Counted from the stretch's first letter, positions 33,528-56,719 are shown. The stretch is DNA of 64,000 nucleotides from an uncultured Actinomycetes bacterium (GCA_963841415.1 CAWJCN010000004.1:171470-235469), one strand, 5' to 3'. A program made the numbers and translations. Notes: generated by a model from the letters alone, not told the origin.

Positions 33528-34022
33528 TCAGGCGCGGGCGAAGACGGGGAACCAGTGCTGGAGGAGCTGGCTCACCTCGAGCGCGCACTCGTCGCCGGCG
33601 GTCATGCCGCGCGCGACCTCGGCCGCGGCGCGGGCGACGTGGGTGACGTCGATCTCGGGGAGCTCCATCCCCTGCGCCTCGGCGGCGCGCTGCACCGTCT
33701 GCGCCGCGTCCCACGCGGCGCGGGCCGCGTGGCGGCTGCGGTGCGAGTGACGGAGAGCGCGGTCGATGGCGATCGTGGCGTGCCAGGCGTCGACCTCGTC
33801 ACCCACGGTGTCGCTGGCGAGCGAACGCGCGACGTGCTGGATGTCGGCGACCGTGAGCTCGGCGAGGGCGGCGTGGAACTCCATCAGATCCATGCCTGAC
33901 ATTCTCGGCACAACTCGACCTCGAGATGGGGGATTTTCGGGGTCTTGACGAGCAATTCCCGGTGAACGGCATGTTTCCCGACGCGCAGGCCACCTCGCGG
34001 TCGCCGCTCGGACCTGCCTCAT
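33528..34022 (-). CDS. Hypothetical protein
   Basis: The C-terminal 125 aa look coding. Start is ATG 34022 (preceded by the GGAATCGACC element) or ATG 33902. Confidence 0.45.
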   Translation of the reverse strand: MRQVRAATARWPARRETCRSPGIARQDPENPPSRGRVVPRMSGMDLMEFHAALAELTVADIQHVARSLASDTVGDEVDAWHATIAIDRALRHSHRSRHAARAAWDAAQTVQRAAEAQGMELPEIDVTHVARAAAEVARGMTAGDECALEVSQLLQHWFPVFARA

Positions 34023-34072
34023 CGGTCGATTCCGTTGCGCCGTCTCGCCCTCCGGGCACGGCTCCACTTCAT
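34019..34072 (-). CDS. Candidate relay mini-ORF D (MKWSRARRARRRNGIDR)
   Basis: Its ATG overlaps the ppx stop (AGATGAAG). Its TGA overlaps the downstream ATG 34022 (CGATGAGG). It contains the GGAATCGACC element. Confidence 0.35.
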   Translation of the reverse strand: MKWSRARRARRRNGIDR

Positions 34073-34998
34073 CTCGTCTGGCTGCGGACCAGGCCGTCGA
34101 GGATGTCGGCCTCGCTGACCAGCATCTCGTCGAAGCCGAGCACCCGGAAGATGCCCACCAGCACCGCGGTACCGCCCACGATCACGTCGACGCGGCCCGG
34201 TTCGAGCCCGGGGTTGTGGGCGCGCTGCTCGGCGCGCTCGGTGGCGAGCGTCCGGAACACGTCCTCGGCCGCGTCGCGCGTCAACACGAAGTGGTGGATC
34301 TTCTCCGGGTCGTACTCGGGGAGACCCTGCTCGACCGCGGCGACGGTGGTGACAGTGCCCGCGAGGCCGACCAGCGTCGCCGCCTCGGACGCGCCGGGCA
34401 CCAGGCGCGTCACTTCGGCGACGAGGTCGCGCACCGCGGCGACGGCGTTCGACAGCTCTTCGGGCGCGGGGGGATCGGAGTGGAGGTACTGCTCGGTGAT
34501 GCGTACGCACCCCATGTCGAGCGACACCATCCTGTTGGGCGCGTCGGTGCCGAGCACGAACTCGGTGGAGCCGCCGCCGATGTCGACGACGAGATACGGC
34601 GCGGGCGCGTCGAGATCGGCGGTGGCGCCGAGGAACGACAACGCGGCTTCCTCGTCACCGGAGAGCAGCTCGGGCGTGACGCCGAGCGCGGCGTGCGCGG
34701 CGGTGAAGAACTGGTCGCGGTTCGACGAGTCTCGCGCCGCGCTCGTTGCGGTCGCGCGCGCCGTGGTGACGCCGTGTTCGTCGAGCACGGTCCGGTACTC
34801 GCGCAGCACCGCGATCGTGCGCTCGATTGCGTCCGGCGCCAGGGCGCGCGTGCGATCGACGCCCTGCCCGAGTCGGGTGATGCGCATCCGCCGATCGAGC
34901 GGGACGACCTTGGTGTCGCGCGGCGAGGTGCCGTCGACGTCAGCGACCAGGAGCCGGACGGAGTTCGTGCCGATGTCGACCGCAGCGACTCGCTTCAC
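34069..34998 (-). CDS. ppx: Exopolyphosphatase / Ppx-GppA family phosphatase
   Basis: VAAVDIGTNSVRLLVADV motif. GTG 34998 overlaps the DUF501 stop (GTGA); the ORF track extends to 35112. Confidence 0.85.
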   Translation of the reverse strand: MKRVAAVDIGTNSVRLLVADVDGTSPRDTKVVPLDRRMRITRLGQGVDRTRALAPDAIERTIAVLREYRTVLDEHGVTTARATATSAARDSSNRDQFFTAAHAALGVTPELLSGDEEAALSFLGATADLDAPAPYLVVDIGGGSTEFVLGTDAPNRMVSLDMGCVRITEQYLHSDPPAPEELSNAVAAVRDLVAEVTRLVPGASEAATLVGLAGTVTTVAAVEQGLPEYDPEKIHHFVLTRDAAEDVFRTLATERAEQRAHNPGLEPGRVDVIVGGTAVLVGIFRVLGFDEMLVSEADILDGLVRSQTR

Positions 34999-35480
34999 AC
35001 CCGTTCCCCGTCGGGCGCGGTCGCGGTCGTGTGCGCCAGTCGTTCGGCCGTCCAGCGGCCCACTGGGTCGTCGGCCCCTGCCAGCAGGTTGGCGTAGTGG
35101 GCGTGCAGGCACTTGACGCCCTCACGGGTGCCGCCCACCCCGCCCGACGGTCGGGGTCCGGTGTGGTCGGGAGCGATGCTCGCGTCGCGCGCGGCCGCGT
35201 ACGCGTCGTGGGCCGACCGCACAGACACCGGATCCACCGCGGCCTGGGCGTCGCGCACGCCGCCGGCGGCTTCCAGGCGGGAGATCCGCAGGTTGAGGTC
35301 GGGATCGACCAGCCAGTACCGGGTGGGCATCGGCGTGCCGGCGCGAGTGAACGGCGCGTTGCACACCACCACCGGGGCACCGGCGACGTCGCGCACCACC
35401 ACCTCGAAGTCGGCTTGCGGCGCGCGCCCGAGCCGGTCGGTGACCGCGGCGACGTCGTCCGCGTGGTGGACGGGCATCAC
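34995..35480 (-). CDS. DUF501 domain protein
   Basis: 161 aa. PTRYWLVDP...GGVGGTREGVKCLHAHYA family core. Same position as the Rv1025 homologue. Confidence 0.8.
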   Translation of the reverse strand: MMPVHHADDVAAVTDRLGRAPQADFEVVVRDVAGAPVVVCNAPFTRAGTPMPTRYWLVDPDLNLRISRLEAAGGVRDAQAAVDPVSVRSAHDAYAAARDASIAPDHTGPRPSGGVGGTREGVKCLHAHYANLLAGADDPVGRWTAERLAHTTATAPDGERV

Positions 35481-35554
35481 TCGGGTCGATTCCGCTCGGG
35501 CGTCCCAGCCGTCCGGCCACGGCTCCGCGTCATCTCCCGCTTGATGTCCATCAC
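35477..35554 (-). CDS. Candidate relay mini-ORF C (VMDIKREMTRSRGRTAGTPERNRPE)
   Basis: Starts 2 codons after the ftsB TAA, in the same frame. Its TGA overlaps the DUF501 GTG/ATG (GAGTGATG). It carries the GGAATCGACC element. Confidence 0.35.
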   Translation of the reverse strand: MMDIKREMTRSRGRTAGTPERNRPE

Positions 35555-35560
35555 CCCAGT

Positions 35561-38554
<2,994 letters not shown>

Positions 38555-38634
38555 GCCCGACCGGAATAGTTGCGAGCGCAAGTAGGTTGCTGACGCTAAC
38601 CCGAGACGCCACCCGCAGCCCACCGGAGGCCGCC

Positions 38635-39600
38635 ATGCCCGCAGTGACCGTCGACAACCCGCTCGTGCTCCCCCGCATCCCGCGCCCCGACGCGGCGGCG
38701 ACGGTCGCGCGGCCGGCGGTGCGCGCCGTGCCCGCGCACCACGCGATCGAAGGCGCCGGCTTCGAGGTGTGGCGGCCGTTCCCCGGCGGGCTGAGCATGC
38801 ACGACACCGACCCGTTCCTCCTCCTCGACCAGCTCGGCCCGGTCGAGTACGAGCCGAACGAGGCGAAGGGCGCGCCGTGGCACCCGCACCGCGGCTTCGA
38901 GACGGTGACCTACGTGCTCGACGGCGAGATCGCGCACCACGACTCCAACGGTGGCGGTGGCGTGATCGGCGAGGGCGACACGCAATGGATGACCGCGGGT
39001 GGCGGCATCCTGCACGACGAGGTGCCGACCGAGCGCGCGTTGCGCACCGGCGGGCCGTCGCACGGCGTGCAGCTCTGGGTGAACCTGCCGTCGTCGCTGA
39101 AGTTCACGCCGCCCCGGTACCAGGCGATCACCGGTGACCACTTGGTGCTGCTGTCGTCCGACGACGGCGGTGCGCTCGTGCGCCTCATCGCCGGTGAGCT
39201 CGCCGGTCACCCCGGTCCCGGCGACACGCACACGCCGATCACCTACGCGCACGCGACCGTCTCGCCGGGCGCGCAGCTCACCGTGCCGTGGAACCCCGAG
39301 TTCAGCGCGATGGCCTACGTGCTGCTCGGCCAGGGGTACGCAAGCGACGAGGCCAGACCCGTGTCCGACCACCAGCTCGTGGTCTTCGGTCCCGGCGACA
39401 CGCTCACCGTGCGCGCCGCTGACCGCCAGGAGGGCCCGACCGACGTCTTCGAGGTGCTCCTGCTCGGCGGCCTCCCGATCTGCGAGCCCATCGAGCACTA
39501 CGGCCCGTTCGTGATGAACACCCGCGAGGAGATCGTCGAGGCGATCGACGACTTCAACGCCGGCCGCATGGGCACCATCCCCGCCATCGGGCTCGGCTGA
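38635..39600 (+). CDS. Pirin-family protein
   Basis: HPHRGFETVTYVLDGEIAHHDS cupin metal motif, and the C-terminal pirin domain (GPFVMNTREEI). Confidence 0.85.
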   Translation: MPAVTVDNPLVLPRIPRPDAAATVARPAVRAVPAHHAIEGAGFEVWRPFPGGLSMHDTDPFLLLDQLGPVEYEPNEAKGAPWHPHRGFETVTYVLDGEIAHHDSNGGGGVIGEGDTQWMTAGGGILHDEVPTERALRTGGPSHGVQLWVNLPSSLKFTPPRYQAITGDHLVLLSSDDGGALVRLIAGELAGHPGPGDTHTPITYAHATVSPGAQLTVPWNPEFSAMAYVLLGQGYASDEARPVSDHQLVVFGPGDTLTVRAADRQEGPTDVFEVLLLGGLPICEPIEHYGPFVMNTREEIVEAIDDFNAGRMGTIPAIGLG

Positions 39601-39671
39601 GACCGTCCGCCTCATCCAGCAGGTGTGAGTTCGACCCCCGCGGAAGGGGTGGAACTGCAACTTGCTCGGGG

Positions 39672-41102
39672 TCAGGGGTGGGAGGCGGCTTCGAGCCAGA
39701 GGGCGGCGACGGCGGCGGGGTCGAGGGCGGCGAGGTCGACGCCGCGCGCGATCGCCAGCTCCTCCATCGCCTCGAAGCGGCGTCGGTAGTCGGCGGCCCA
39801 GCCACGCAGGGCGGACTCGGCGTCGATGCCGCCGGCGCGGGCCACGACCACCGACGCGGCGAGCACGCGCGCCAGCTCGCGCTCCAGCTCGCCGTCGTGA
39901 GCGCGCAGGCCGGCGAGGGCAGCGTCGATGCGGTCGAGCGCCTCGTCGAGCGTTCCGGGGTCGAGTCCGACCGATGCGGCTTTGCGGAAGAGCTTGTGCG
40001 TGTAGAGCAGCGACGGGAGTCCGGGGGTGATGCCGGCCACGATCGACGTGGTGCCCTTCTCCTCCTTCTTGATCTGCTCCCAGTTGCGCATGACCTCCGC
40101 GGTCTCGTCGGCCACCACGTCGCCGAAGACGTGCGGGTGGCGGCGGACGAGCTTGTCGTGGATGCCGCGTGCGACGTCGGCCATCGTGAACTCACCGGCC
40201 TCCTGCGCGAGCACCGCGTGGAACACCACCTGGTAGAGCAGGTCACCGAGCTCGTCCTCGAGCGGTGCGTACCCGGCCTCGGGCAGGTCGTCGACCGCCT
40301 CGACGACCTCGTACGCCTCTTCGAGCAGGTAGCGGGTGAGCGAGCGGTGCGTCTGCTCGGCGTCCCACGGACACCCTCCCGGGTCGCGCAACCGCTTGGC
40401 CAGCTGGAACAGCCGCACCAGCTCGCGCGCCGAGGCCACCGCCCCGGCGTCGACGAACACCGAGGTGAGGTGGTCGGGCACGACTGCGCCGCGGTCGAGC
40501 TCCTCGAGCGCGACGACCGTGATCTGCTCGTCGGACAGTCCGAGTCGTTGCAGCACCGTCACCGGCGTGTCGGGCCCCAGGTGCTCGAGCAGCGCGAGCT
40601 TCACCTCGGACAGCACGAACGCGTTGTCGCACTGCGCGATCAGGAGGCGGCCCGCGAGCTCGGCGTCGTCGATGGCGCGGCCGTCGACGACGCGGGCGTC
40701 GCCGTCCATCGGGTCGACCCCCAGACGCACCCACGCCAGGTCGGCGAACGACACGCCGGGGACCAGCTCCAGCTCGACCAACGGATCCGCACGCAACAAC
40801 GCCACCGCGCGCTCGGCGACCGCCGGGCTGCCCGGCACCGCGTAGACCACGTCGCGGTCGAACGCCGCCGCCGCGAGCCGAGCTGCGATCTCGGTGTACG
40901 CGGCATCGAGGTCGAGCGCGGTGTCGTACACGTCGTCGAACGACTCGAACTCGAGCCCCGCGGCGACGAGGTCGTCGATCGCGGGATGGCGCAGCGTGCG
41001 CGCGCACCGGTGCGACGCCGACTCCAGTGCCGCCCGCGCCACCGGCAGGAGGTGGTCGGCCCCCGCCGGTCCGAGGCCCACCACGACGACCCGGCCCGGC
41101 AC
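39672..41102 (-). CDS. mazG: MazG nucleoside-triphosphate pyrophosphohydrolase fused to an N-terminal tetrapyrrole-methylase-like (YabN) domain
   Basis: VVVVGLGPAGADHL N-domain. MazG repeats (CPWDAEQTHRSLTRYLLEEAYEVVEA, EELGDLLYQVVFHA). GTG 41102 is preferred; the ORF extends to 41153. Confidence 0.8.
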   Translation of the reverse strand: MPGRVVVVGLGPAGADHLLPVARAALESASHRCARTLRHPAIDDLVAAGLEFESFDDVYDTALDLDAAYTEIAARLAAAAFDRDVVYAVPGSPAVAERAVALLRADPLVELELVPGVSFADLAWVRLGVDPMDGDARVVDGRAIDDAELAGRLLIAQCDNAFVLSEVKLALLEHLGPDTPVTVLQRLGLSDEQITVVALEELDRGAVVPDHLTSVFVDAGAVASARELVRLFQLAKRLRDPGGCPWDAEQTHRSLTRYLLEEAYEVVEAVDDLPEAGYAPLEDELGDLLYQVVFHAVLAQEAGEFTMADVARGIHDKLVRRHPHVFGDVVADETAEVMRNWEQIKKEEKGTTSIVAGITPGLPSLLYTHKLFRKAASVGLDPGTLDEALDRIDAALAGLRAHDGELERELARVLAASVVVARAGGIDAESALRGWAADYRRRFEAMEELAIARGVDLAALDPAAVAALWLEAASHP

Positions 41103-41112
41103 CCGCGCGCTC

Positions 41113-41685
41113 CTAGCTGCCGACGGGGCAGCCGCTCGGCGGGCAGACGCCATGGCGCCCGCGCCAGCTGCCGTAGCGCGGATTCACGTAGATGTCGGCA
41201 CCGCGCAGCGCCTTGGTGAAGAAGGCCTGCTGCTTCGCCTGCGTCGTCAGCCCCATCGCCTGCACGAGCGCGGTGCCGTCGACCAGGACGTCGATGGCGC
41301 TGGACGGTGCATTCGGATATTGCTTCTCGTACTGCGACCGGAGCTGGTCGCTCGTGGACTTCGGCACGCCGACGTCCTGCCGCGCGGCGGCATCGAGCAG
41401 GAGCTGGGTCTGGATCCGCTGGTTGAGCCAACTCGCCGTGACCGACGACGCGATCGAACCGTCGCTCGGGCTGAGGACCGTACCCTGCTTCTCGAGGTTG
41501 GTGGCGATCGTCTTGCTGCCGGCGAGCCACTCGAGCTCGTCGTCGACGGTGGACTGCGAGACCTGCGTGCCGTTGGCCTTGTAGGCGAAGGCCTGCCCAC
41601 CCGCGGCGACCGCGGCGATGGCCGCACCGACCACGCAGAGGACGGTGACGACAGCGACGGCGACGAGGGCGAGACGACTTCTCAC
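41113..41685 (-). CDS. Membrane-anchored hypothetical protein (SurA N-terminal-domain-like)
   Basis: GTG 41685 gives VRSRLALVAVAVVTVLCVVGAAIAAV (signal/anchor). Conserved position between mfd and mazG. Confidence 0.5.
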   Translation of the reverse strand: MRSRLALVAVAVVTVLCVVGAAIAAVAAGGQAFAYKANGTQVSQSTVDDELEWLAGSKTIATNLEKQGTVLSPSDGSIASSVTASWLNQRIQTQLLLDAAARQDVGVPKSTSDQLRSQYEKQYPNAPSSAIDVLVDGTALVQAMGLTTQAKQQAFFTKALRGADIYVNPRYGSWRGRHGVCPPSGCPVGS

Positions 41686-41750
41686 GTTGGTCGATTCCGT
41701 TCCCGCGTCCCGGCCATCCGGCCACGCCTCCACTGCATCTCGCGGCTCAT
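41682..41750 (-). CDS. Candidate relay mini-ORF B (MSREMQWRRGRMAGTRERNRPT)
   Basis: Its ATG overlaps the mfd stop (CCATGAGC). Its TGA overlaps the downstream GTG (ACGTGAGA). It carries the GGAATCGACC element. Confidence 0.4.
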   Translation of the reverse strand: MSREMQWRRGRMAGTRERNRPT

Positions 41751-44700
41751 GGCGCTGCGGAGGCTAGCGCGGGCGCCGCCGCGGCCGAGTCCGGGGGTGG
41801 CGGCGGGAGCAGGTCCTGCAGGAGGTCGACCAGCGTCGTCGCGACCTCCGCGGCCGCGGCCGTCACCGGCACGACCAGTTCGTCGTCCTTCGGCACTGCC
41901 TTGGGCACCAACCGGCGCAACCGGACCTTCTGCGACTCCTTGAGTGCGACGCCCACGATGCGCGCCAGGTTGCGCTGCACGGTGATGCTCCGGATGCCGA
42001 GCCGCACGCACTCCACCCGGAGCCGGGCCACGTCGAGCAACGCCACGGCCGACGGTGGTGGCGGGCCGTAACGGTCTTCCCACTCGGCCCGCACGTCCTC
42101 GACGTCGTCGTCCGACGTGACCGCGGCGAGGCGCCGGTACGCCTCCATGCGCACGTCGTCGCGCTGCACGTAGTCGCGTGGCAGGTTGGCGTCGACCGGG
42201 ACGTCGATGGTGATCTCGACGGGTTCGGGCACCGGTTCGCCCTTCAGCTCACCCACCGCCTCGGTGACCATCTGGCAGTAGAGGTCGAAGCCGACGGCGG
42301 CGATGTGGCCCGACTGCGCCTGCCCGAGCAGGTTGCCGGCGCCGCGGATCTCCAGGTCGCGCATGGCGATCTTGAAGCCGGATCCGAGGTCGGTGAACTC
42401 GCCGATGGTCTTGAGTCGTTCGTAGGCCTCCTCGGACAGCACGCGGTCGGCCGGGTGGAACAGGTACGCGTAGGCGCGCTGACCGCGCCGACCGACCCGG
42501 CCGCGGAGTTGGTACATCTGCGCGAGACCGAGCATGTCGGAGCGATCCACGACCAACGTGTTGACCGTGGGCATGTCGATGCCGCTCTCGACGATCGTGG
42601 TGCACACGAGCACGTCGAACTCGCGCTCGGCGAACTCGAGCACGACCCGCTCGAGCCGACTCTCGTCCATCTGCCCGTGGGCGACGGCGACGCGCGCATC
42701 GGGCACGAGCGCACGCACGTTCTCGGCGACGAGCTCGATGTCGCGCACGCGATTGTGCACGTAGAACACCTGGCCCTCGCGCAGCAATTCGCGCCGGATC
42801 GCCTCGGCCGCGGCGCGGTCGTCGTACTCGCCGACGTAGGTGAGGATCGGTTGGCGGTCCTCGGGCGGCGTGTTCACCAACGACAGATCGCGGATGCCCG
42901 TGAGCGACAGCTCCAGCGTGCGGGGGATCGGAGTGGCGGTGAGCGTGAGGACGTCGACGTTCGTTGCGAGCTGCTTGATGAGCTCCTTGTGCTGCACCCC
43001 GAAGCGTTGCTCCTCGTCGACGACGAGCAACCCGAGGTTCTTGGGCTTCACGTCGGTCGACAGGAGACGGTGCGTGCCGATGAGCACGTCGACCGCGCCC
43101 GACTCGAAGTCGCGCACGACTGCCGTCTGCTCCCTGGCGGAGAGGAAGCGCGACAGGACCTCGACGCGCACGGGGTAGTTGGCGAAGCGCTCGCGGAACG
43201 TCTGGCCGTGCTGACCCGCGAGCAGCGTGGTCGGTACGAGGATGACGACCTGGGTGCCGTCCTGCACCGCCTTGAACGCGGCCCGCACCGCGACCTCGGT
43301 CTTGCCGTACCCGACATCGCCACACACGAGGCGGTCCATGGGGATCGGCCGCTCCATGTCGCCCTTCACGTCGTTGATGGCCTGGAGCTGGTCGGGCGTC
43401 TCCTCGAACGGGAACGCCTCCTCGACCTCGTGCTGCCACGGCGTGTCCGGGCCGAAGGCGCGCCCCGGCGTGGCGAGGCGCCGGCGGTACAGCACGATCA
43501 GCTCCTCGGCGATCTCGCGCACCGCGCTGCGGACTCGTGCCCGCTGCTTCTCGAAGTCGGCGCCACCCATGCGGTTGAGCGAGGGCGTCTCGCCGCCGGT
43601 GTACTTGCGCACGAAGCCCACCTGGTCGGTGGGCACGTACACCTTGCCGTCCCTGAACTCGAGCCAGAGGTAGTCGCGCTCGACGCCGCCCATCGTGAGC
43701 GGCTTCATCTCCAGGTAGCGACCGACGCCGTGCTGGTGGTGCACGACGTAGTCGCCGGGCTCGAGCGCGTCGTAGTAGTCCTGGCCGCGGCGCGCGCCGC
43801 GTGCGCGACGGTGGACGCGTCGACGGCCGGTGAGGTCGGCTTCGGCGACGACCGCGAGGTGCGCAGCGGGCAGCACCACACCGCGTTCGAGTGGAGCGAC
43901 GCGGATGCGCACCGCGCCGGGCGCGGGTTCGCCGTCGCCGGCGTCGAGGCCCTCACCGGCGAGGATGTCGCGCAGACGCTGCGCGGAGCCGGTGCCCTCG
44001 GCGGCGAGCACGACGCGGTAACCCTCGCCCGCGAGCGCGCGCAGACGGCGCGCCGAGCGCGTCGGCGTCGCCCACGACCGGATCGAACGCGCTGGCGGCG
44101 ACACGCGGCGTGTCGGGACCCTCGGGAGTCGCCAGCAACGACACCGCGCCGGCACGCGTGTTCGCGAGGAGGCGGTCGAACTCCAGCGAGAGGCGAGGGA
44201 GGTCGCGCACCTCGCCCGCGCCCCACGTGACCGCGAGCGTGGACGCCAGCGACGCCTCTTCGTCCAGCAGCTCCTGGGCGCGGTCGCGCATGCGCTTGGG
44301 CTCGACCAGCAACACGAGCGCGTCGTCGGGCAGGAGGTCGGTGAGCAGGTGCTCGCGGTCGGTGAGCCACGGCAGCCACGACTCCATGCCGTCGAACAGC
44401 TGCCCTTCGGCGAGGCGCTCCCACTGCTCGCGACCCCACGGCTGGCGGGCGACGAGCGCGGCGGCGCGCTCGCGCACGTCGTCGGTGGGCAGCAGCTCCC
44501 GGGTGGGGAACACGCACACCTCGTCGACGTCGTGCGTGGAGCGCTGGTCGGCGACCGAGAACGCCGAGAGCCGGTCGACTTCGTCGCCCCAGAGGTCGAT
44601 GCGGACCGGGTGGTCGTCGGTCGACGGGTACACGTCGACGATCGAGCCCCGCACCGCGACCTCGCCCCGTGCTTCCACCTGGTACTCGCGGCGGTAGCCA

Positions 44701-45209
44701 CCGGCGACGAGGCGCGCCACGAGCGCGTCGCGGTCGACCTGGTTCCCCGGGCGCACCACGACCGGTTCGACCTCTTCGGCGTGCGGGCCCAGCCGCTGCA
44801 CCAACGCGCGGACCGGCGCCACGACGACGTCGGGCGGCGTGCCTTCACCCTGCGACGAGGCGCGCAGGCGCCACATCACCCGGAGGCGGCGCCCCATCGT
44901 CTCGAACGACGGCGACACCCGCTCGAACGGCAAGGTCTCCCACGCGGGGAACAGCTCGACCGCGTCGTCGCCCACGAACTGGCCCAGGTCGCGCACGAGG
45001 CGCTGCGCCTCCGCGCCCGTCGGCACCGCCAGCAGCAACGGCCGACGGGTCGTGACGCCCGCTAGCGACGCCACGAACAGGGCACGGGCCGCGTCGGGCA
45101 CCGCCACCGTCGGCCGCCGCGAGATCACCGCGCGCAGCGCCGGCTCCTCGGCGAGGAGCGGAGCGAGGGCGGCGAGCGGCGGCGCGGGATTCATTGGTGG
45201 GTGGAACAC
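41747..45209 (-). pseudogene. mfd: Transcription-repair coupling factor Mfd, frameshifted as sequenced
   Basis: The N-terminal ORF 43953..45209 and the C-terminal part of ORF 41747..44848 (DEAD/helicase motifs GDVGYGKTEVA, VVDEEQRFG) join at about 44045-44070 with a 1-nt frame change. Confidence 0.85.
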
Positions 45210-45248
45210 GCTATGTGTCGTCCAGCTGCCAATGAATCGGGCAGGGGG

Positions 45249-45833
45249 TCAATTCACACGATTCATGGCGGCGTCGACGCCGTCGGCGATGATCGCCTCC
45301 ACCGCGTCGGCGGCCTCCTCGAGCACGACGTCGATCTCGGCCCGCTCGCGCTTGGAGAACTTCTTGAGCACGTGGTCGACGCCGTGCTCCTTCGACACCG
45401 GCTTGCCGACCCCGATGCGCACCCGCAGGAACGCGTCGGAGTGGAGGTGCGACGTGATCGAGCGGAGCCCGTTGTGGCCGGCCAGCCCGCCACCGTTCTT
45501 CACCTTCAGCGCGCCGACCGGCAGGTCGAGCTCGTCCTGCACGACGACGATCTGCTCGGGCTCCACGCCGTAGCGGCGCGCCAGCGGGGCGACCGCCATC
45601 CCGGACTCGTTCATGTACGTGAGGGGCACGGCGAGCGCGACGAGCGACGAGCCGAAGCGCACCTGGTCGACCCGGGCACGCTCCTTGCCCTTCTTCAGCT
45701 TCGCGCCGTGCCGGTGGGCGAGGATCTCCACGACCTCGGCGCCGACGTTGTGGCGCGTGCACGCGTAGTCGTCGCCCGGATTGCCGAGCCCCACCACCAG
45801 CAAGTCGGCGGCGGTGCCCCGACGCCGCAGCAC
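45249..45833 (-). CDS. pth: Peptidyl-tRNA hydrolase
   Basis: LVVGLGNPGDDYACTRHNVG, GHNGLRS motifs. Confidence 0.9.
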   Translation of the reverse strand: MLRRRGTAADLLVVGLGNPGDDYACTRHNVGAEVVEILAHRHGAKLKKGKERARVDQVRFGSSLVALAVPLTYMNESGMAVAPLARRYGVEPEQIVVVQDELDLPVGALKVKNGGGLAGHNGLRSITSHLHSDAFLRVRIGVGKPVSKEHGVDHVLKKFSKRERAEIDVVLEEAADAVEAIIADGVDAAMNRVN

Positions 45834-45836
45834 GGG

Positions 45837-46502
45837 TTACTCGACGCCGGCGTCGTCCGAGGCCTCGGCGGATGCCTCCGCACCCTCGGCGGCCTCGCCC
45901 TCGCCCTCGACGCCTTCGCCCTCTTCGCCTTCCTCGGCCTCGGTGACGACGCGCGGCGCGGCGACCTGCGCGACGACGGTGTCGGTCTCGACCTCCGTCG
46001 ACACACCTTCGGGCAGCTTGACGTCGTCGAGGTGCAGCTGGTCGCCGATCTCGAGCGCGGTCACGTCGATCTCGATGGACACCGGGATGTTGCCCGGCAT
46101 CGCCTCCACGGTGAGCTGGAACATGAGCTGCTCGAGGAGACCGCCGTCTTTCACCCCGGTCGCCTCGCCCAGGAGGTGGATCGGGATCTCGGCGCTGACG
46201 GCGACGTCGCGGCGGATGCGGATGAAGTCGACGTGCACGAGCTCGCCCCGGGTGGGGTGGCGGTGGATCTGCCGGGCCAGCGTGAGCACGCTCTCGCCGT
46301 CGACGTCGAGGTTGATCAGGGTGTTGGCACCGGACTCGCCGGCGAGGATGTGCTGCAGCTCGCGTGACGGCACGGTGATCGACACGGTCTCGGTGCCGAG
46401 GCCGTAGACCACGGCAGGCACCTTGCCCTCGCGGCGGATCCGGCCGGAGGGGCGCGACCCGAGCTCGGTGCGCGGAGCGGAGGCGAGGGTGATGTCAGGC
46501 AT
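45837..46502 (-). CDS. rplY: 50S ribosomal protein L25/Ctc with acidic C-terminal tail
   Basis: GSRPSGRIRREGKVPAVVYG...HPTRGELVHVDF. Confidence 0.9.
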   Translation of the reverse strand: MPDITLASAPRTELGSRPSGRIRREGKVPAVVYGLGTETVSITVPSRELQHILAGESGANTLINLDVDGESVLTLARQIHRHPTRGELVHVDFIRIRRDVAVSAEIPIHLLGEATGVKDGGLLEQLMFQLTVEAMPGNIPVSIEIDVTALEIGDQLHLDDVKLPEGVSTEVETDTVVAQVAAPRVVTEAEEGEEGEGVEGEGEAAEGAEASAEASDDAGVE

Positions 46503-46559
46503 GGCGGAACAGGGGCCTTTCAGCCGTCCGGGACGGCCCGGAACGCGGAGCCCGAAAGT

Positions 46560-47543
46560 TTAGACGTTGTCGCCGCGGAAGATCTCGCTGACGCTGGTGT
46601 CTTCGAAGACGGCGTCGAGGGCCTCGGCGATGATCGGCGCGATCGAGAGGATCTCGAGGGCGTCGAAGCGCTTGTCGTCGGGGATCGGCAGCGTGTTGGT
46701 GACCACCACCTGGCGCACCGGCGCGTTCTTGAGGCGGTCGACCGCGGGCCCCGACAGCACGCCGTGGGTGGCGGTCACCCACACCTCGGCGGCCCCTCGC
46801 TCGAGCAGCAGGTTGACGGCGGACGTGATGGTGCCGGCGGTGTCGATCATGTCGTCGACGAGGACGCAGACGCCGCCCTCCACGTTGCCGACCACGTCGG
46901 TGGCCTCGGCGACGTTGTGCGTGCCCTTGGGGCGACGCTTGTCGATGAAGGCGAGGTCGGACTCCACGCCGGCGTCGCCGAGACAGTTCGCGAAGCGCCG
47001 GGCCAGCTTCAGACCGCCCGCGTCGGGCGACACCACGACGACGTCGCCGTCCACCTGACCCGCGAGGTAGTCGGCGAGCAGCGGCACCGCGGTGAGGTGG
47101 TCGACCGGGCCGTCGAAGAAGCCCTGGATCTGGCCGGTGTGGAGGTCGACGCTGACGAGGCGGTCGGCTCCGGCCGCAGTGAGGAGGTCGGCGAGCAAGC
47201 GAGCCGAGATCGGCTCGCGACCCTCTGCCTTGCGGTCTTGGCGCGCGTATCCGTAGAACGGGCACACCGCGGTGATGCGACGCGCCGACGCGCGCTTGGC
47301 CGCATCGATCATGAGCAGCTGCTGCATGATTCGGTCGTTGATCGGTTCGCAGTGGCTCTGCACGACGAACACGTCGGCGCCACGGATGCTCTCGCCGTAG
47401 CGCGCGTAGAGCTCACCGCTCGCGAACGTCGACAACTTGATCTGCCCGAGCGGGACGCCGAGGCACTCCGCGATCTCGTTCGAGAGGTCCTCGTTGCCCT
47501 GCCCCGCGAAGACCATGAGCTTCTTCTTGGAAACGAGTTCCAC
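46560..47543 (-). CDS. prs: Ribose-phosphate pyrophosphokinase
   Basis: GTG start. KKLMVFAGQGN..., and the PRPP-binding loop VLVDDMIDTAGT. Confidence 0.9.
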   Translation of the reverse strand: MELVSKKKLMVFAGQGNEDLSNEIAECLGVPLGQIKLSTFASGELYARYGESIRGADVFVVQSHCEPINDRIMQQLLMIDAAKRASARRITAVCPFYGYARQDRKAEGREPISARLLADLLTAAGADRLVSVDLHTGQIQGFFDGPVDHLTAVPLLADYLAGQVDGDVVVVSPDAGGLKLARRFANCLGDAGVESDLAFIDKRRPKGTHNVAEATDVVGNVEGGVCVLVDDMIDTAGTITSAVNLLLERGAAEVWVTATHGVLSGPAVDRLKNAPVRQVVVTNTLPIPDDKRFDALEILSIAPIIAEALDAVFEDTSVSEIFRGDNV

Positions 47544-47629
47544 GCCTTCTCCGCTCTTGGCCCTGCGGGCCGGGCCGCTCCGGCCCCGCCTCGCTGCACC
47601 GCAGGATACCTGCGGCGCGGCCGCTCGGC

Positions 47630-49081
47630 TCAGGCTTCTCCGCTCTCGGCCTCATTTTCGAGGTCGTCTTCGTCCCGGGCATCGTCGCGCTTCGCGACCC
47701 AGCCCTCCTCGATCGAGGCCGGCACGCCCTTGGCCAGCGCGCCGGAGGGCACGTCGCGGGTGACGACCGCGCCGGCGCCGGTGTAGGCGCCCTCGCCCAC
47801 CTCGACGGGCGCGACGAGCACGGTGTTGGAGCCCGTGCGCGCGTCGGCGCCGACCTTGGTGCGGTGCTTCTCCCGGCCGTCGTAGTTGGCCGTGATGGTG
47901 CCGGCACCGATGTTGGCGCGGGGTCCGATCTCGGCGTCGCCGACGTACGCGAGGTGCGGCACCTTGGCGTCTTCGCCGATCTCGGAGTTCTTGATCTCGA
48001 CGAACGTGCCGACGTGCGCGCCCGCGGCCAAGCGCGTGCCCGGTCGCAGCGACACGTACGGCCCGACGGTCGCGCCGTCGCCGATCTCCGCCTCGCGGGC
48101 GACGGTCTGGCGGACGACCGCGCCCTCGCCCACCACGGTGTCGACGAGCTGACAGTCAGGACCGATCACCGACCTCGCGCCGACCACGGTGCGGCCCGAG
48201 AGGATGGTGTTGGGCAGGAGGTGCACGTCGGGCGCGAGCCCGACCGCGGCGTCGACGTAGGTGCGCGCCGGGTCGGTCATCCCGACGCCTGCGCGCATCC
48301 AGCGGGTGTTGATCCGGTGGCGGAGCTCGGCCTCGGCTTCGGCGAGCTGGGCACGGTCGTTGACGCCGAACGCGTCGGTCGCGTCGTCCGCCTCGACGCC
48401 GAGCACGAGGTGGCCGGCCTGACGCAGGACGGCGACGACGTCGGTGAGGTAGTACTCGCCCTGCGCGTTCTCGGGGCTGAGCCGGCGCAGCGCGGGCGCG
48501 AGGAGGCCGCGGCGGAAGCAGTAGATCGACGGGTTGACCTCGTCGATCTCGAGCTCGTCGGGGGTGCCGTCGGACTGCTCGACGATGCGGTCGACCCGGC
48601 CCTGGTCGTCGCGCACGACGCGCCCGTACCCGGTGGGATCGGCCACGCGAGCGGTGAGCAACGACGCGGCGGCGTCGGCGTTGCGGTGCGCGGTGGCGAG
48701 CCGGGCCAGCGTCTCGGCCCGCAGGAGCGGCACGTCGCCGGCCACGATGATGAGGTCGTCCTCGACGTCGAGGTCGTCCGCGAATGCGGTGAGTCCGATG
48801 TGTGCGGCGTCGCCGGTGCCCCGTTGCGCGGGCTGCTCCACGAACTCCACCGGCACGTCGCCCACGAGCTGTTCCTGCAGCGTCTTGGTGACGTGCTCGG
48901 CGGCGTGACCGACGACGACCACGATCTTCTGCAGCGGTAGCTGCTCGAGCGCGTCGAGCACGTGCAGGAGCATCGGCCGTCCGCACAGCGGGTGGAGCAC
49001 CTTCGGGGTGGCGGAACGCATGCGCGTGCCCTCGCCTGCCGCCAGAACCACTGCGCTCACCGGCCGGATCTGCGTCGCCAC
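47630..49081 (-). CDS. glmU: Bifunctional UDP-N-acetylglucosamine pyrophosphorylase / GlcN-1-P acetyltransferase
   Basis: VVLAAGEGTRMRS N-terminus and left-handed beta-helix hexapeptide repeats at the C-terminus. GTG start preceded by GGAG. Confidence 0.9.
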   Translation of the reverse strand: MATQIRPVSAVVLAAGEGTRMRSATPKVLHPLCGRPMLLHVLDALEQLPLQKIVVVVGHAAEHVTKTLQEQLVGDVPVEFVEQPAQRGTGDAAHIGLTAFADDLDVEDDLIIVAGDVPLLRAETLARLATAHRNADAAASLLTARVADPTGYGRVVRDDQGRVDRIVEQSDGTPDELEIDEVNPSIYCFRRGLLAPALRRLSPENAQGEYYLTDVVAVLRQAGHLVLGVEADDATDAFGVNDRAQLAEAEAELRHRINTRWMRAGVGMTDPARTYVDAAVGLAPDVHLLPNTILSGRTVVGARSVIGPDCQLVDTVVGEGAVVRQTVAREAEIGDGATVGPYVSLRPGTRLAAGAHVGTFVEIKNSEIGEDAKVPHLAYVGDAEIGPRANIGAGTITANYDGREKHRTKVGADARTGSNTVLVAPVEVGEGAYTGAGAVVTRDVPSGALAKGVPASIEEGWVAKRDDARDEDDLENEAESGEA

Positions 49082-49116
49082 TGATCTCCTACGGGATGTC
49101 TCCCTGTCCGGGGGTG

Positions 49117-49187
49117 CTCGGGGGCGAGGTTTCGAACCTCGACTTGGGACTCCAAAGGACCCCGTGCTGCCGTTACACCACCCCCGA
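49117..49187 (-). tRNA. tRNA-Gln (anticodon UUG)
   Basis: Manual fold: acceptor TCGGGGG/CCCCCGA, D-stem GTGT/GCAC, anticodon loop CTTTGGA (one U-U mismatch in the stem), T-arm CGAGG-TTCGAAA-CCTCG. Confidence 0.8.
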
Positions 49188-49252
49188 ATTGGTCGACACG
49201 ACGGTACCTGATGTGCGGGTCGTCGCCGTGCCCGACTAACTTGCGTCCCGCC

Positions 49253-49354
49253 ATGGGCTCACTGATCAAGAAGCGCCGCAAGCGCATGCGGAAGAAGAAG
49301 CACAAGAAGCTTCTCAAGAAGACGCGCTGGCAGCGCCGTCAGCAGGGCCGCTGA
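49253..49354 (+). CDS. Small basic ribosomal protein bS22-like (33 aa)
   Basis: MGSLIKKRRKRMRKKKHKKLLKKTRWQRRQQGR closely resembles the actinobacterial MGSVIKKRRKRM...KHRKLL bS22 family. Too short for the ORF track. Confidence 0.7.
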   Translation: MGSLIKKRRKRMRKKKHKKLLKKTRWQRRQQGR

Positions 49355-49445
49355 CCGACCTCTCCCCGTTCTGGCGTGCCCGCGCCGTGCATGTCACGGC
49401 GGAGGTACGCAAGAACGACATGGCGAGATGGCCAGATGGGGCGTG

Positions 49446-50339
49446 TCAGCTGGCGAGGCGGACGCCGCGGGAGACGCTGGTCGTGCCGACGACGGGCACG
49501 CGTAGGCGTCGCCTGACCTCCTCGACCAGCCCGGGAAGCCGGCGCGCGTCCGCGACGGGCACCACGTAGGCCGACCCGCTGCCCGCGAGCAGCGCGGGCG
49601 CGCCGGTGGCCGCTTCGAGCGCGGCGCGGAATTCGACCAGGCGCGGCTCGAGCATCTCGGCCGCCGGCTCCAGGTCGTTGACGAGCTCGTCGACCAACGC
49701 CGTCAGCCGGCGCGGCGCCGGCACCATCCGCTCCGACCGCGGGCCGCCCAACCGGTCCCACGCCTTGTAGACGTCCGGAGTCGACAGCCGGAACGGCGGG
49801 ATGGCCACCACGAACGCGAGTCCGGTCGGCACCGACGCCGGCTCGATGATCTCGCCCCGCCCGCGGATCCAGGCTGCGCCGCCCCGCACGCAGAACGGCA
49901 CGTCCGACCCCACCTCGGCCGCGAGGGCGAGGACACCGGCATCGTCGACGTCGACGTCGAGCAGCTCACGCACCGCCAGCAGGGCGGCGGCCGCGTCGGC
50001 CGACCCGCCGCCGAGCCCACCGCCGGCGGGGATGTGCTTGCGCAGCACGAGCCGCACGCCGTGCCCCGACCGTCCCGCGCGCACGAGCAACTTCTCGGCC
50101 GCGATGAAGGCGAGGTTGCGGTGGTCGGACGGCACGTCGTCGCCGAGCTCCACCCCCGAGACCTCCACCTGCACACCACCCGGCGCGGGCACCGCGAAGA
50201 CCTCGATCACGTCGTGCGGCTGACCGAGCGACACCACCAGCGACTCGAGGTCGTGGAACCCGTCACGCCGGCGGCCGAGCACGCGCAGCGACAGGTTGAG
50301 CTTGGGATATGCGGTGGCGCGGACGCGGGCAAGTCTCAT
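49446..50339 (-). CDS. ispE: 4-diphosphocytidyl-2-C-methyl-D-erythritol kinase
   Basis: AYPKLNLSLRVLGRRRDGFHDL and the GHMP motif PAGGGLGGGSADAAA. ATGA overlap with the rsmA stop. Confidence 0.9.
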   Translation of the reverse strand: MRLARVRATAYPKLNLSLRVLGRRRDGFHDLESLVVSLGQPHDVIEVFAVPAPGGVQVEVSGVELGDDVPSDHRNLAFIAAEKLLVRAGRSGHGVRLVLRKHIPAGGGLGGGSADAAAALLAVRELLDVDVDDAGVLALAAEVGSDVPFCVRGGAAWIRGRGEIIEPASVPTGLAFVVAIPPFRLSTPDVYKAWDRLGGPRSERMVPAPRRLTALVDELVNDLEPAAEMLEPRLVEFRAALEAATGAPALLAGSGSAYVVPVADARRLPGLVEEVRRRLRVPVVGTTSVSRGVRLAS

Positions 50340-51186
50340 GCTGCCTCCGCCGCGCTGCGGGCCACCGCGGCCCAGTCGTCGAGACCGAGCGCCTCGGCCC
50401 GTGCGGTCGGGGCGACGCCCGCCGCCGCCAGCACCGCGGGCGTGGCGTCGCCGAGCACCGGCGCGAGCGAACGGCGCAGCATCTTGCGGCGCTGCGCGAA
50501 GCCGGCGCGCACGAGCACGAACAGGTCGTCGGCCGACGGCACGCTCACGGGTGGTTCCGACCGGCGGTGCAGCCGCACGAGCGCCGAGTCGACTTTGGGG
50601 CGCGGGATGAACACGGTCGGCGGGACGAGCCCCACGACCTGCGCCTCCGCGAAGTACGCGACCTTCACCGACACCGCGCCGTACTGCGGGTCGCCGGGGC
50701 CGGCTGCCAACCGCTCCCCCACCTCACGCTGCACCATGACCAGGATGCGCTCGACCGCATCGGCCTCCTCGAGCAACCGGACGACCACCGGCACCGCCAC
50801 GTTGTAGGGCAGGTTCGACACGCACGTACGCGGCGACGGCGGCGGCGCGAGCAGTGCGTCGAGGTCGACGCTCATCGCGTCGCCGGGCTCCACTCGCACG
50901 ACGGCACGGGACCGGCGTCGACCACCACCGCGCGGAGCACGTCGGCCAGCCGGTCGTCGAGCTCCAGCGCCACGACGTCGTGGCCGGCGTCGAGCAGGGC
51001 GAGGGTGAGCGACCCGAGACCGGGGCCGATCTCGAGCACCGGCGCCGCGGCGGGCAACTCGGCCAACGCCACCACCCGGCGGGCGGTGTTCGGGTCGGCG
51101 AGGAAGTTCTGGCCCAGGCTCCGCTTGGGGTGGAGCCCGTGCTGGCCGAGCAGCGCGGTCACCGTCGCCGGGGTCAGGAGAGCCAC
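50336..51186 (-). pseudogene. rsmA: 16S rRNA (adenine1518/1519-N6)-dimethyltransferase RsmA/KsgA, frameshifted as sequenced
   Basis: N-terminal ORF 50872..51186 (KRSLGQNFL, LEIGPGLGSLT) and C-terminal ORF 50336..50899 (SNLPYNVAVP). There is a 1-nt frame change near 50895-50905. Confidence 0.85.
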
Positions 51187-51190
51187 GATG

Positions 51191-51424
51191 ACGGTCGATT
51201 CCGCTCCGGCGTCCCGGCCGTCCGCCGTGATGGTTCGCTCACTGCGAGCCGGGATACCCGGCTCGCAGCCGTTCGCTCACACCCACGCCTCCGCTGCATC
51301 TCCATCACAACGGTCGATTCCACTCCTGCGTCCCGGCCGTCCGCCGCGATGGTTCGCCCACTGCGAGCCGGGATACCCGGCTCGCAGCCGTTCGCTCACA
51401 CCCACGCCTCCGCTGCATCTCCAT
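51191..51424 (-). repeat. Two tandem 115-nt copies (119-bp period, 4 mismatches) of the GGAATCGACC intercistronic element, each with an internal 12-bp-stem hairpin
   Basis: Direct comparison of 51191-51305 with 51310-51424. Hairpin CTGCGAGCCGGG-TAT-CCCGGCTCGCAG is flanked by direct repeats GTGAGCGAAC. Located between the rpfB stop and the rsmA start. Confidence 0.95.
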
Positions 51425-55757: not shown

Positions 55758-56630
55758 CTATAACCCCGGCGAACGACGCCGGTTCGCTTGCTTGAGGCGC
55801 GTGGCGGCGTCGTAGGTGCGGCGACGGGGGACGCCGAGGTCGCGCGCGACCCGGGCCGCGGCGTCGCGCGTCGACAGGCCCTCGCCGAGCGCGGCGGTGA
55901 CGTGGGCGTCGATCTCCGCGTCGCTGGCCTCGGGCGGCGGCGGTGCGGGCGCGACCACGATGACGTGCTCCCCGCGCGGCTCTCCGAGCTCGACGTGCCC
56001 GACCGCCTCGTCCAGCGTCCCGCGCCACACCTCCTGGTGCAGCTTGGTGAGCTCGCGGGCGACGGCCACCTCCCGCAACGGTCCGCACGCGCCCAGCAAC
56101 TGGGTGAGCGTGCCGTGCACCCTCCGGGGCGACTCGTAGAGCACGACGGTGCGGATCTCGGGCACGAGCCCGGCGATGCGGTCGCGGCGTTCGACGCCGC
56201 GCCGGGGCAGGAACCCCTCGAAGACGAAGCGGTCGGTCGGGAACCCGGAGAGCACGAGCGCCATGAGCACCGCGCTCGGACCTGGGACCACGTCGACGGC
56301 AAGCCCCGCGTCGACGCACGCCCGCACGAGACGCTCGCCCGGATCGGAGATGCCCGGCATCCCGGCGTCGGTGACGTACGCGACACATCGTCCGTCGCGC
56401 ACCGCGTCCACGACCCAGTCGGCGCTCTGCTGCTCGTTGTGCGCGTGCACCGAGCGCAGGCGCCCGGCCGCGGGCACGCCGAGGTGGCTGAGCAGGGCCC
56501 GGGTCCGGCGCGTGTCTTCCGCCGCGATGACGTCGGCGTCGCGCAGCGCCTCCACGACTCGTGTCGACACGTCACCGAGGTTGCCGATCGGCGTCCCGAC
56601 CAGCACCAACACACCAGGATCATCGGTCAC
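55758..56630 (-). CDS. rsmI: 16S rRNA (cytidine1402-2'-O)-methyltransferase
   Basis: LVLVGTPIGNLGDVS..., DAGMPGISDPG motifs. GTG start. Confidence 0.9.
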   Translation of the reverse strand: MTDDPGVLVLVGTPIGNLGDVSTRVVEALRDADVIAAEDTRRTRALLSHLGVPAAGRLRSVHAHNEQQSADWVVDAVRDGRCVAYVTDAGMPGISDPGERLVRACVDAGLAVDVVPGPSAVLMALVLSGFPTDRFVFEGFLPRRGVERRDRIAGLVPEIRTVVLYESPRRVHGTLTQLLGACGPLREVAVARELTKLHQEVWRGTLDEAVGHVELGEPRGEHVIVVAPAPPPPEASDAEIDAHVTAALGEGLSTRDAAARVARDLGVPRRRTYDAATRLKQANRRRSPGL

Positions 56631-56719
56631 GCTTTCCCGCTCTCGGTGCTGCGCACCGGGCCGCTCGGGCCCCGCTCCGTTGCTCGCCGGGATACCCGGC
56701 TCGCGGACACTTCGCTCAT
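56627..56719 (-). CDS. Candidate relay mini-ORF E (MSEVSASRVSRRATERGPSGPVRSTESGKA)
   Basis: Its ATG overlaps the DUF192 stop (GCATGAGC). Its TGA overlaps the rsmI GTG (GCGTGACC). It contains the GG-TAT-CC hairpin and the GAGAGCGGGAAAGC 3' motif. Confidence 0.4.
   Translation of the reverse strand: MSEVSASRVSRRATERGPSGPVRSTESGKA

Follow-up and report, generated by a model that had tools for sequence, protein, structure and literature searches.

A dispersed, tandemly expandable hairpin-repeat family of Acidimicrobiia with phased mini-ORFs in its junction-resident subtype

Introduction

A 64,000-nt stretch of DNA from an uncultured Actinomycetes bacterium (GCA_963841415.1, CAWJCN010000004.1:171470-235469; the whole stretch is here called the window) contains five copies of a short conserved element, named A1, A2, B, C and D, each of which carries a small open reading frame (ORF) close to the end of one gene or the start of the next. 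The locus raises the question of what such an element is: a translational device, a structured RNA, a mobile repeat or the source of a peptide. An earlier note, made from the sequence alone, had proposed a translational relay cassette that carries ribosomes across gaps between genes. Here we find that the five copies are members of a dispersed, tandemly expandable hairpin-repeat family of the Acidimicrobiia (phylum Actinomycetota), and that the relay-ORF property belongs to a junction-resident subtype, type 1, and not to the whole family. This is a known concept, that of the interspersed repetitive units of mycobacteria (MIRUs), reportedly described by Supply et al. in 1997, met anew in a new, sequence-unrelated Acidimicrobiia family that is larger than the window suggests.

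Results

The window copies belong to a dispersed repeat family

The sequence GGAATCGACC matches the window exactly five times (34024, 35484, 41689, 51193 and 51312), always on the minus strand, as the earlier note had counted. Shuffles put the expectation at 0.20, and none of 100 attained five matches; the 5′ half, GAGATGMAGYGGAGSCGTG, is present at the same five places (expected 0.24). The G+C content of the window is 70.3%. Neither nhmmer nor a covariance model run with its filters off revealed further copies in the 64 kb. A weak covariance-model match at 56579-56641 was discarded because it falls within the N-terminus of a coding sequence.

One genome per species was scanned with the pattern GGNNGRGACGNNNNANNGGAATCGACC, which returned at least 103 stretches; all family counts given here are among the matches listed, plus the window. 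In these loci nhmmer identified at least 187 units in at least 113 arrays, from approximately 25 Acidimicrobiia metagenome-assembled genomes (MAGs), with at least 20, at least 17 and at least 12 loci in single MAGs. Single units make up 72 of the arrays, 21 are double and 12 triple, and arrays of four, five and six units were found four times, three times and once, respectively. Each unit comprises a core of 51-52 nt and a spacer of 9-11 nt. The modal period is 62 nt, with array periods spanning 58-65 nt overall. The spacer is locus-specific, being uniform inside each array and different between arrays. Units are seen in short-read and long-read assemblies alike. A CRISPR reading was rejected because the spacers measure 9-11 nt and are identical within an array, and an intrinsic terminator was rejected because the hairpin described below is followed by CGACC and the variable spacer, with no U-tract or T-run.

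Soil and freshwater MAGs labelled Acidimicrobiia or 'uncultured Actinomycetes' account for nearly all carriers among the matches listed. The one exception to Actinomycetota hosts, locus L078, was binned as Acidobacteriota (MFD02242.bin.2.7), a label that probably stems from wrong binning rather than from occurrence across phyla. Both the flanks and the type 1 unit of L078 are identical to those of L097, from an Acidimicrobiia-type MAG (MFD05841.bin.2.21). Other pattern matches outside the Actinomycetota (L013, L065, L096 and L100) are not among the nhmmer arrays.

When the whole window was compared with Rfam at gathering thresholds, the sole match was a tRNA at 49117-49187, and E-value scans of A1/A2 and of the L022 array gave chance-level matches or none. 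A full-text literature search for GGAATCGACC returned unrelated primer sequences only.

The core forms a covarying hairpin that includes its own ATG

We analysed structure on an alignment of 95 distinct cores. At the base of the hairpin, the 5′ sequence G-A-U(-G-)C(-A-)G-C and the 3′ sequence G-C(-G-)G(-A-)A-U-C form helix P1, so that the ATG of GAGATG faces the AUC of GGAATC (GGAATCGACC). Inward from P1 lie a symmetric 3 x 3 internal loop (GGA/GNA), helix P2 (GGCGU/ACGCC), a GGG bulge and helix P3 (GGCC/GGCC), which is capped by a loop of 3 or 4 nt (GGA or GGAY). Standard pairs occupy 95.3% of cells across the 95 cores; sliding the 3′ partner by 1-3 columns lowers this to 20-51%.

Seven of the 15 pairs vary on both sides. 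The covariation score is 0.218 versus 0.085 in shuffles, and none of 500 shuffles reached 0.218. At position 14-39, C-G stands against G-C in 46 versus 42 sequences; the counts at position 22-31 are 44 for G-C and 43 for C-G, and those at position 9-44 are 72 for C-G and 20 for U-A. A change of ATG to ACG is offset by AAUC to AGUC in four of five cases. RNAalifold recovered P1 and P2 without guidance. Among the single-stranded parts, the internal loop GGA/GNA, the bulge GGG and the tail CGACC are invariant. The high conservation of the GAGATG and GGAATC ends is thus explained by their pairing in a covarying hairpin, and the ATG owes its conservation at least in part to its place in a helix strand.

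Reading phase is a property of type 1

Two subtypes differ in their stems, which are GGCGU/ACGCC and GGCC/GGCC in type 1 and GCCGU/ACGGC and GCCC/GGGC in type 2. Both co-occur in the same genomes. In the window A1, A2, B and C are type 1, and D, with stems GCCGU/ACGGC and GCCC/GGGC, is type 2. Gene orientation was assigned by scoring coding potential (local frame) over 240 nt on each side of an array, a procedure whose single-locus calls may err: copy C was scored as having an opposite upstream gene, although ftsB lies upstream on the same strand.

By this measure 41 type 1 arrays have a co-oriented gene downstream and 2 have an opposite one (p=1e-10). Their boundary is usually xTGATGGAGATG on the 5′ side and GACC-N4/5-TGATGG on the 3′ side. 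The ATG is kept in 76 of 78 type 1 units. The first stop in the frame of this ATG falls within 15 nt past the core in 57 of the 78, as against 4 and 5 in the other two frames, and in 53 of these 57 it overlaps a start codon. Counting one junction per array, stop/start overlaps are distributed 34:4:1 over the three frames, with the mini-ORF frame first (p=5e-12); the corresponding ratio for Illumina-only loci, counted per unit, is 22:2:1 (p=2e-8). Overlaps of -4 (ATGA, GTGA) and of -1 (TGATG, TAGTG) are found at both mini-ORF ends, and each unit of a type 1 array is its own phased ORF, joined to its neighbour by TGATG. The distance between motifs equals 2 mod 3, which places the type 1 mini-ORF in phase. 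The TGA is preceded by 5 nt where the loop has 3 nt (51-nt core) and by 4 nt where the loop has 4 nt (52-nt core). The spacings between overlap motifs of 65 (B), 74 (C), 119 (A), 50 (D) and 26 nt (a remnant in the relative L108, see below) depart from 62 nt by +3, +12, +57, -12 and -36, all multiples of 3, for which the chance is 0.004 if the five events are independent.

Type 2 behaves differently. No stop/start motif was found in 53 of 76 units, and the remainder are spread 9:4:10 across frames; some units have TAG immediately 3′ of the ATG. On the upstream side, 21 arrays have a co-oriented gene and 11 an opposite one; on the downstream side these numbers are 12 and 20. Eight arrays are antisense to both neighbours. 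Array periods of type 2 range from 60 to 65 nt, with 62 nt modal (8 of 16). The earlier note had proposed a model-based scan of the family for strand, position and frame bias; such bias is present in type 1, whereas type 2 has mixed orientation and no frame rule.

Anatomy of the five window copies

The coordinates of the five units and of the hairpin nested in two of them are collected in Table 1. According to Pfam and ORF analysis, A1 and A2 lie between rpfB and rsmA, B between mfd and a gene of 206 aa, C between ftsB and DUF501, and D directly 3′ of ppx.

Table 1. Units of the repeat family and nested hairpins in the window
Feature	Coordinates	Strand	Description
Unit A1	51305..51424	minus	type 1, long form; nhmmer and covariance model
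Unit A2	51174..51305	minus	type 1, long form; mini-ORF from ATG 51305
Unit B	41682..41750 (core 41740-41689)	minus	type 1; covariance model 73.4 bits
Unit C	35477..35554 (core 35535-35484)	minus	type 1; covariance model 62.6 bits
Unit D	34019..34074 (core 34074-34024)	minus	type 2; covariance model 74 bits
Nested hairpin in A1	51361..51389	minus	perfect hairpin GGCTGCGAGCCGGG-TAT-CCCGGCTCGCAG, centre of the 57-nt nested insertion
Nested hairpin in A2	51242..51270	minus	same hairpin, GGCTGCGAGCCGGG-TAT-CCCGGCTCGCAG

The mini-ORFs described in the earlier note could be read as stated in A1, B, C and D. That of A1 runs from ATG 51424 to TGA 51307-51305 (39 aa), and its stop overlaps the ATG of A2. 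In B the encoded peptide is MSREMQWRRGRMAGTRERNRPT; at one end ATG 41750 and the mfd stop share ATGA, and at the other TGA 41684-41682 overlaps GTG 41685 of the 206-aa gene. In C, the mini-ORF opens 2-3 codons past the ftsB TAA, at ATG 35551, and ends at TGA 35479-35477, overlapping the GTG/ATG of DUF501. The motif GTGATG stands at both ends of C (35554-35549 and 35480-35475), and the period is 74 nt (62+12). The exception is A2, where TCG at 51188-51186 occupies the place of the expected stop overlapping the rsmA GTG (51186); the relative L108 has TAG there. The 57-nt insertion ascribed to A1 and A2 is real and in frame in each, giving an A1-to-A2 period of 119 nt (62+57).

The claim that the element always stands at a gene start failed for D. 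The ppx stop codon (34071-34069) is furnished by the GAGATGA of D, and the D ORF runs from ATG 34072, which overlaps this TGA, to TGA 34021-34019, where it ends in non-coding DNA and not at a gene start. Approximately 126 nt of conserved non-coding sequence (third-position GC about 47%; window and orthologous loci) follow, and the real gene 3′ of D encodes 121 aa from ATG 33893. The idea of a relay is largely right for four of the five copies: type 1 mini-ORFs link an upstream stop or ancestral start to the downstream start, and type 2, including D, does not follow this pattern.

Relatives show gain, loss and copy-number change

Contigs of relatives were chosen by Ppx (86-88% identical) and IspE (87-92% identical). 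At the ftsB-DUF501 junction L104, L105 and L106 are empty, with a 9-nt gap after ftsB and a single (GTG)ATG. L104 reads ..CGCCGTGATGGCCGCT.. where the window has GTGATGG[ACATCAAGCGG-core-CGA]GTGATGCCC. Comparison of the empty site with the window therefore identifies a duplication of the start-codon motif GTGATG at C; the first GTGATG opens the mini-ORF and the second gives its TGA and the ATG of DUF501. D is likewise missing from the ppx junction of L104, L105 and L106, in which ppx ends in its own stop.

The mfd junction of L104 also has no element. It bears its own 10-codon bridging ORF in phase (3268-3303; ATGAGCCGTTCCCCGATGCCCGTTTCCCGATGA), with ATGA at both ends 29 nt apart (2 mod 3) and no similarity to the element.

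At the rsmA junction, L109 is empty and has a -10-like TAGTTT, 8 nt and then ATGGCGATGCTC. In the window the ATG of A1 sits 9 nt past the same hexamer (51439-51434), which is conserved in L108 and L109; this correspondence with the empty L109 site shows that the element directly follows the ancestral start codon, and the ancestral rsmA start was probably of the leaderless type. The closest relative, L108, a short-read assembly, retains a remnant at 2124-2152, ATGAAGATG joined to CGGAATCGACCGTCATAGTGGCT (also given as ATGAAGATG joined to CGGAATCGACCGTCATAGTG). It has lost exactly 36 nt, the whole hairpin, and still contains a 9-codon ORF in phase whose TAG overlaps the rsmA GTG.

Differences run in both directions. 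L109 has a full unit (3929-3979, minus) antisense and just 3′ of ispE, where the window is without an element. Orthologous arrays also differ in unit number, with 1 versus 2 in L064 and L075, 1 versus 2 in L026 and L084, and 5 versus 4 in L005 and L071.

These comparisons show that the element is gained, lost and variable in copy number between close relatives, in agreement with the earlier description of it as dispersed and possibly mobile; it is probably mobile. They also place type 1, in the same orientation as the genes, directly after an ancestral start codon or a stop/start overlap. Since the sites in relatives are empty or hold a remnant, the element created the gaps that it bridges. 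The proposal that it carries ribosomes over pre-existing gaps is contradicted by the relatives, whose junctions have a 9-nt gap or overlap directly.

A nested hairpin repeat and other features of the locus

The nested hairpin of A1 and A2 belongs to a second dispersed repeat family and takes the place of the element's apical stem. Its consensus is (GAGCGAAC..)GCGAGCCGGG-TAT-CCCGGCTCGC, and the 57-nt insertion that carries it in A1/A2 is bordered by GTGAGCGAAC/GTG(G/A)GCGAAC. Another site in the window, at about 56690-56715 (minus), lies just past a stop codon and upstream of an rsmI-like gene. Elsewhere this repeat was seen in L034 (5503-5525), L061 (6710-6732 and 6799-6821) and L078 (3702-3724); in L061 an 89-nt tandem unit includes it.

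The conserved block that follows ppx occupies 33990-33894 of the window (minus), 10937-11034 of L104 and 10931-11010 of L106. Its order is GGAAACAYGCCGTTCACNGGGAATTGCTCG ... CCGAAAATCCCCCA ... GTTGTGCCGAGAAT, followed by 7 nt and the ATG of the 121-aa gene. The block could be a promoter or the leader of a leaderless-type transcript; it had no Rfam match at gathering thresholds. A weak hairpin of terminator-like form (GGGTGACGCCCACC then TGTAGTTTCC; 51456-51432, minus), which lies between the rpfB stop and A1, overlaps the -10-like TAGTTT.

Similar -10-like hexamers (TAGGCT, GAGAAT and TAGTTT) were seen 7-9 nt before the ATG at several starts of L104 and L106 and at 51439-51434 of the window, a pattern which suggests that leaderless mRNAs may be frequent in these Acidimicrobiia. 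A motif resembling a Shine-Dalgarno (SD) sequence was present in 13 of 38 called genes of the relatives.

Enolase (35983-37272) is intact. Compared with intact orthologues (tblastn with L104 Mfd and L108 RsmA), mfd (at about 44054) and rsmA (at about 50885-50907) are each split over two frames, which reflects either long-read indel errors or pseudogenes.

Discussion

Weighing the explanations

We consider it probable that the element is a structured dispersed repeat whose type 1 copies reside at start codons with a phased mini-ORF that preserves translational coupling, in the manner of MIRUs. The (G)TGATG or ATGA motif, duplicated at the two ends of type 1, supplies the mini-ORF with an ATG for entry and, for exit, a stop overlapping the start codon of the real gene. 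In the proposed scheme, ribosomes ending the upstream gene, or initiating at the captured original start codon, would translate through the hairpin, terminate at TGA or TAG and begin anew at the start codon that overlaps it. The insertion would thus be non-polar and the translational coupling of the operon would survive. Out-of-phase copies at gene junctions would be purged by selection, and type 2 copies such as D, located after gene ends in either orientation, would be free of phase constraint. Whatever spreads the element most likely recognises the hairpin, which may also affect mRNA stability.

Several observations weigh against this interpretation. Translation of the mini-ORF and reinitiation at its end would be read from phase statistics only. 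Because 62 nt is also the modal period of type 2, the phase signal is in part inherited from unit length and not selected in each copy; independent support for phase is limited to the compensation between loop and tail and to about five length variants. In A2 no in-frame stop is present at the rsmA start, and its mini-ORF reads on to TGA 51176-51174. The scarcity of SD motifs in general makes their lack before downstream starts weak evidence for a dependence on coupling, and the apparent mfd and rsmA frameshifts in the assembly call for caution with single-base details of the window. With regard to mobility, flanking direct repeats of single units are barely longer than in controls, and several long ones are partial neighbouring units; target-site duplication is convincing only at C; and no transposase or other mobilising gene was identified, although whole genomes were not scanned. 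Finally, G-U and A-C cells in the alignment number 19 and 12 (p=0.14), a ratio that does not separate an RNA of this strand from a DNA hairpin.

A cis-acting structured RNA, such as a processing or stability element, a REP-like 3′ hairpin, an RNase target or a protein-binding regulator, would make the ORF a by-product of intergenic position. The strong covariation, which extends to the ATG paired with GGAAUC, and the invariant single-stranded GGA/GNA, GGG and CGACC motifs are what one would expect of it, and type 2 favours co-oriented gene ends (21 versus 11) and next convergent genes (20 versus 12), as REP elements do. We nevertheless think it unlikely. It leaves unexplained the 34:4:1 phase bias, the stop/start overlaps and the length changes in multiples of 3. 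Relatives whose flanking proteins are 86-92% identical have the same junctions without the element, so these operons do not need it; eight type 2 arrays are antisense to both neighbours; and there is neither an Rfam match nor a U-tract for a terminator. The earlier note had held open an RNA- or DNA-level element with an incidental ORF, and of this alternative the covarying hairpin and the absence of an ORF or orientation rule in type 2 have stood, while the phase kept in type 1 speaks against the rest.

The variation in copy number could also be taken as adaptive, with unit number and hairpin setting the ribosome supply downstream and the host tuning operon stoichiometry by changing the number of units. 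Unit numbers do differ at orthologous loci (L064/L075, L026/L084 and L005/L071), every unit is a separate phased ORF joined by TGATG, and arrays persist across species. The pattern of presence and absence looks sporadic, however, and type 2 arrays expand equally without the phase rule, so that expansion needs no translational role. Such tuning would appear quite unlikely on these sequence comparisons. In a variant that we judge improbable, the hairpin would be what a mobilisation system recognises. That system would aim at start codons or at stop/start overlaps ((G)TGATG, ATGA) and insert a self-phased 'delivery ORF'; the element would then have evolved independently of MIRUs, with copy number tuning ribosome flow to the downstream cistron.

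That the mini-ORFs encode a functional Arg-rich micropeptide is highly improbable. The ORFs of type 1 are open and begin with ATG in 76 of 78 units, and the peptides are rich in Arg. However, the frame of the 3′ half differs between units with a 3-nt and a 4-nt loop. Conservation does not extend to the peptide 3′ halves, where D and every unit having a 3-nt loop read ..SGID.. and not ..ERNRP... Variation falls on first codon positions (CAG, AAG, GAG, TAG; CGG, TGG), insertions of 12 and 57 nt that keep the frame are tolerated, as is a deletion of 36 nt, and type 2 units often have TAG right after the ATG. Given the two frames of the 3′ half, the first-position substitutions, the tolerated indels and a conservation that base pairing explains, the peptide is not what is selected, and it would have no function of its own.

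Significance

MIRUs have been in use as typing markers for decades. Among the questions of their biology are how they spread and whether the phased ORF truly preserves translational coupling. The Acidimicrobiia family is a second, sequence-unrelated one in another class of the Actinomycetota that is under the same rule of a period of 2 mod 3 and stop/start overlaps, and its type 2 copies, which lack the rule, form an internal control that turns an anecdote into a comparative test. This suggests a recurrent mode of life for small repeats within operons, in which they insert at a start codon and bring along a relay ORF of their own.

The frame of the downstream gene is open through the core in 32 of 41 type 1 arrays, and gene callers are likely to extend downstream proteins through the units. 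In M. tuberculosis, RegX3 clusters P0121-P0124 and P0126 are N-terminally extended (245-347 aa instead of 227 aa), apparently by gene callers reading through the MIRU array. The units would in addition be candidate markers of the variable-number tandem repeat (VNTR) type for uncultured soil Acidimicrobiia.

Comparison with known systems

Repetitive extragenic palindromes (REPs) and the bacterial interspersed mosaic elements (BIMEs) that they form part of are short, GC-rich imperfect palindromes of high copy number, associated with the Y1 transposase RAYT, that lie between genes and mostly after gene ends. REP elements avoid divergent promoter regions and can stabilise upstream mRNA. The Acidimicrobiia family resembles them in its GC-rich imperfect palindrome of 15 pairs, and the distribution of type 2 matches that of REPs. 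It differs in lacking a conserved GTAG, with TAGG in the 5′ flank of 11 of 76 type 2 and 4 of 78 type 1 units. Its units are arranged head to tail on one strand per array examined, in contrast to the inverted pairs of BIMEs, and type 1, unlike REPs, combines a position upstream of starts with a phased ORF. Compared with miniature inverted-repeat transposable elements (MITEs), P1 amounts to an imperfect terminal inverted repeat of about 8 nt, and GTGATG is duplicated at C with respect to the empty site; over single units as a whole, the flanking repeats hardly exceed controls in length.

Termination-reinitiation coupling via short 'delivery' ORFs with NTGA and TGATG overlaps has been reviewed (PMC12548453). 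The -4 and -1 overlaps at both ends of the mini-ORF are of this kind; here the delivery ORF rides on a hairpin element that is repeated and probably mobile, and as many as 5-6 can follow one another in a chain.

The closest likeness is to MIRUs, intergenic repeats of 40-100 bp present in 40-50 copies per genome (PMC3184786). They lie inside operons, have ORFs that overlap the flanking genes and contain GC-rich internal inverted repeats (PMC3184786), and their insertion at start codons with a coupled internal ORF has been noted (PMC12548453). In the M. tuberculosis senX3-regX3 locus (L107) we found 3.1 copies of a 77-nt unit, in which each ORF is joined to the next and to regX3 by CTGATGACC; 77 nt equals 2 mod 3, the same arithmetic as in the 62-nt Acidimicrobiia units. 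Both families consist of dispersed intergenic units of 40-100 nt inside operons, numbering dozens of loci per genome, in head-to-tail arrays of variable copy number (here 1-6 units), with an internal GC-rich inverted repeat and insertion at start codons. Co-orientation with genes (41 versus 2) and ORF ends overlapping the neighbours' stop and start (34:4:1) are shared by type 1 and not by type 2.

In sequence the two are unrelated. The family profile (nhmmer) had no match in the senX3-regX3 array, the one MIRU locus compared, and E was at least 0.65 elsewhere in that locus; a local alignment of the family with this MIRU scored 14, under the shuffle mean of 15.7. The hosts are Acidimicrobiia and not Mycobacterium, and the Acidimicrobiia family has a long covarying hairpin that pairs its own ATG and a sister subtype, type 2, without orientation or phase rule. 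The earlier statement that the element is not a described motif accordingly holds for its sequence and not for its concept, since MIRUs have been described with a coupled ORF at start codons (PMC12548453, PMC3184786). The Acidimicrobiia family is neither a MIRU nor a new kind of device; it is a MIRU-like counterpart of unrelated sequence.

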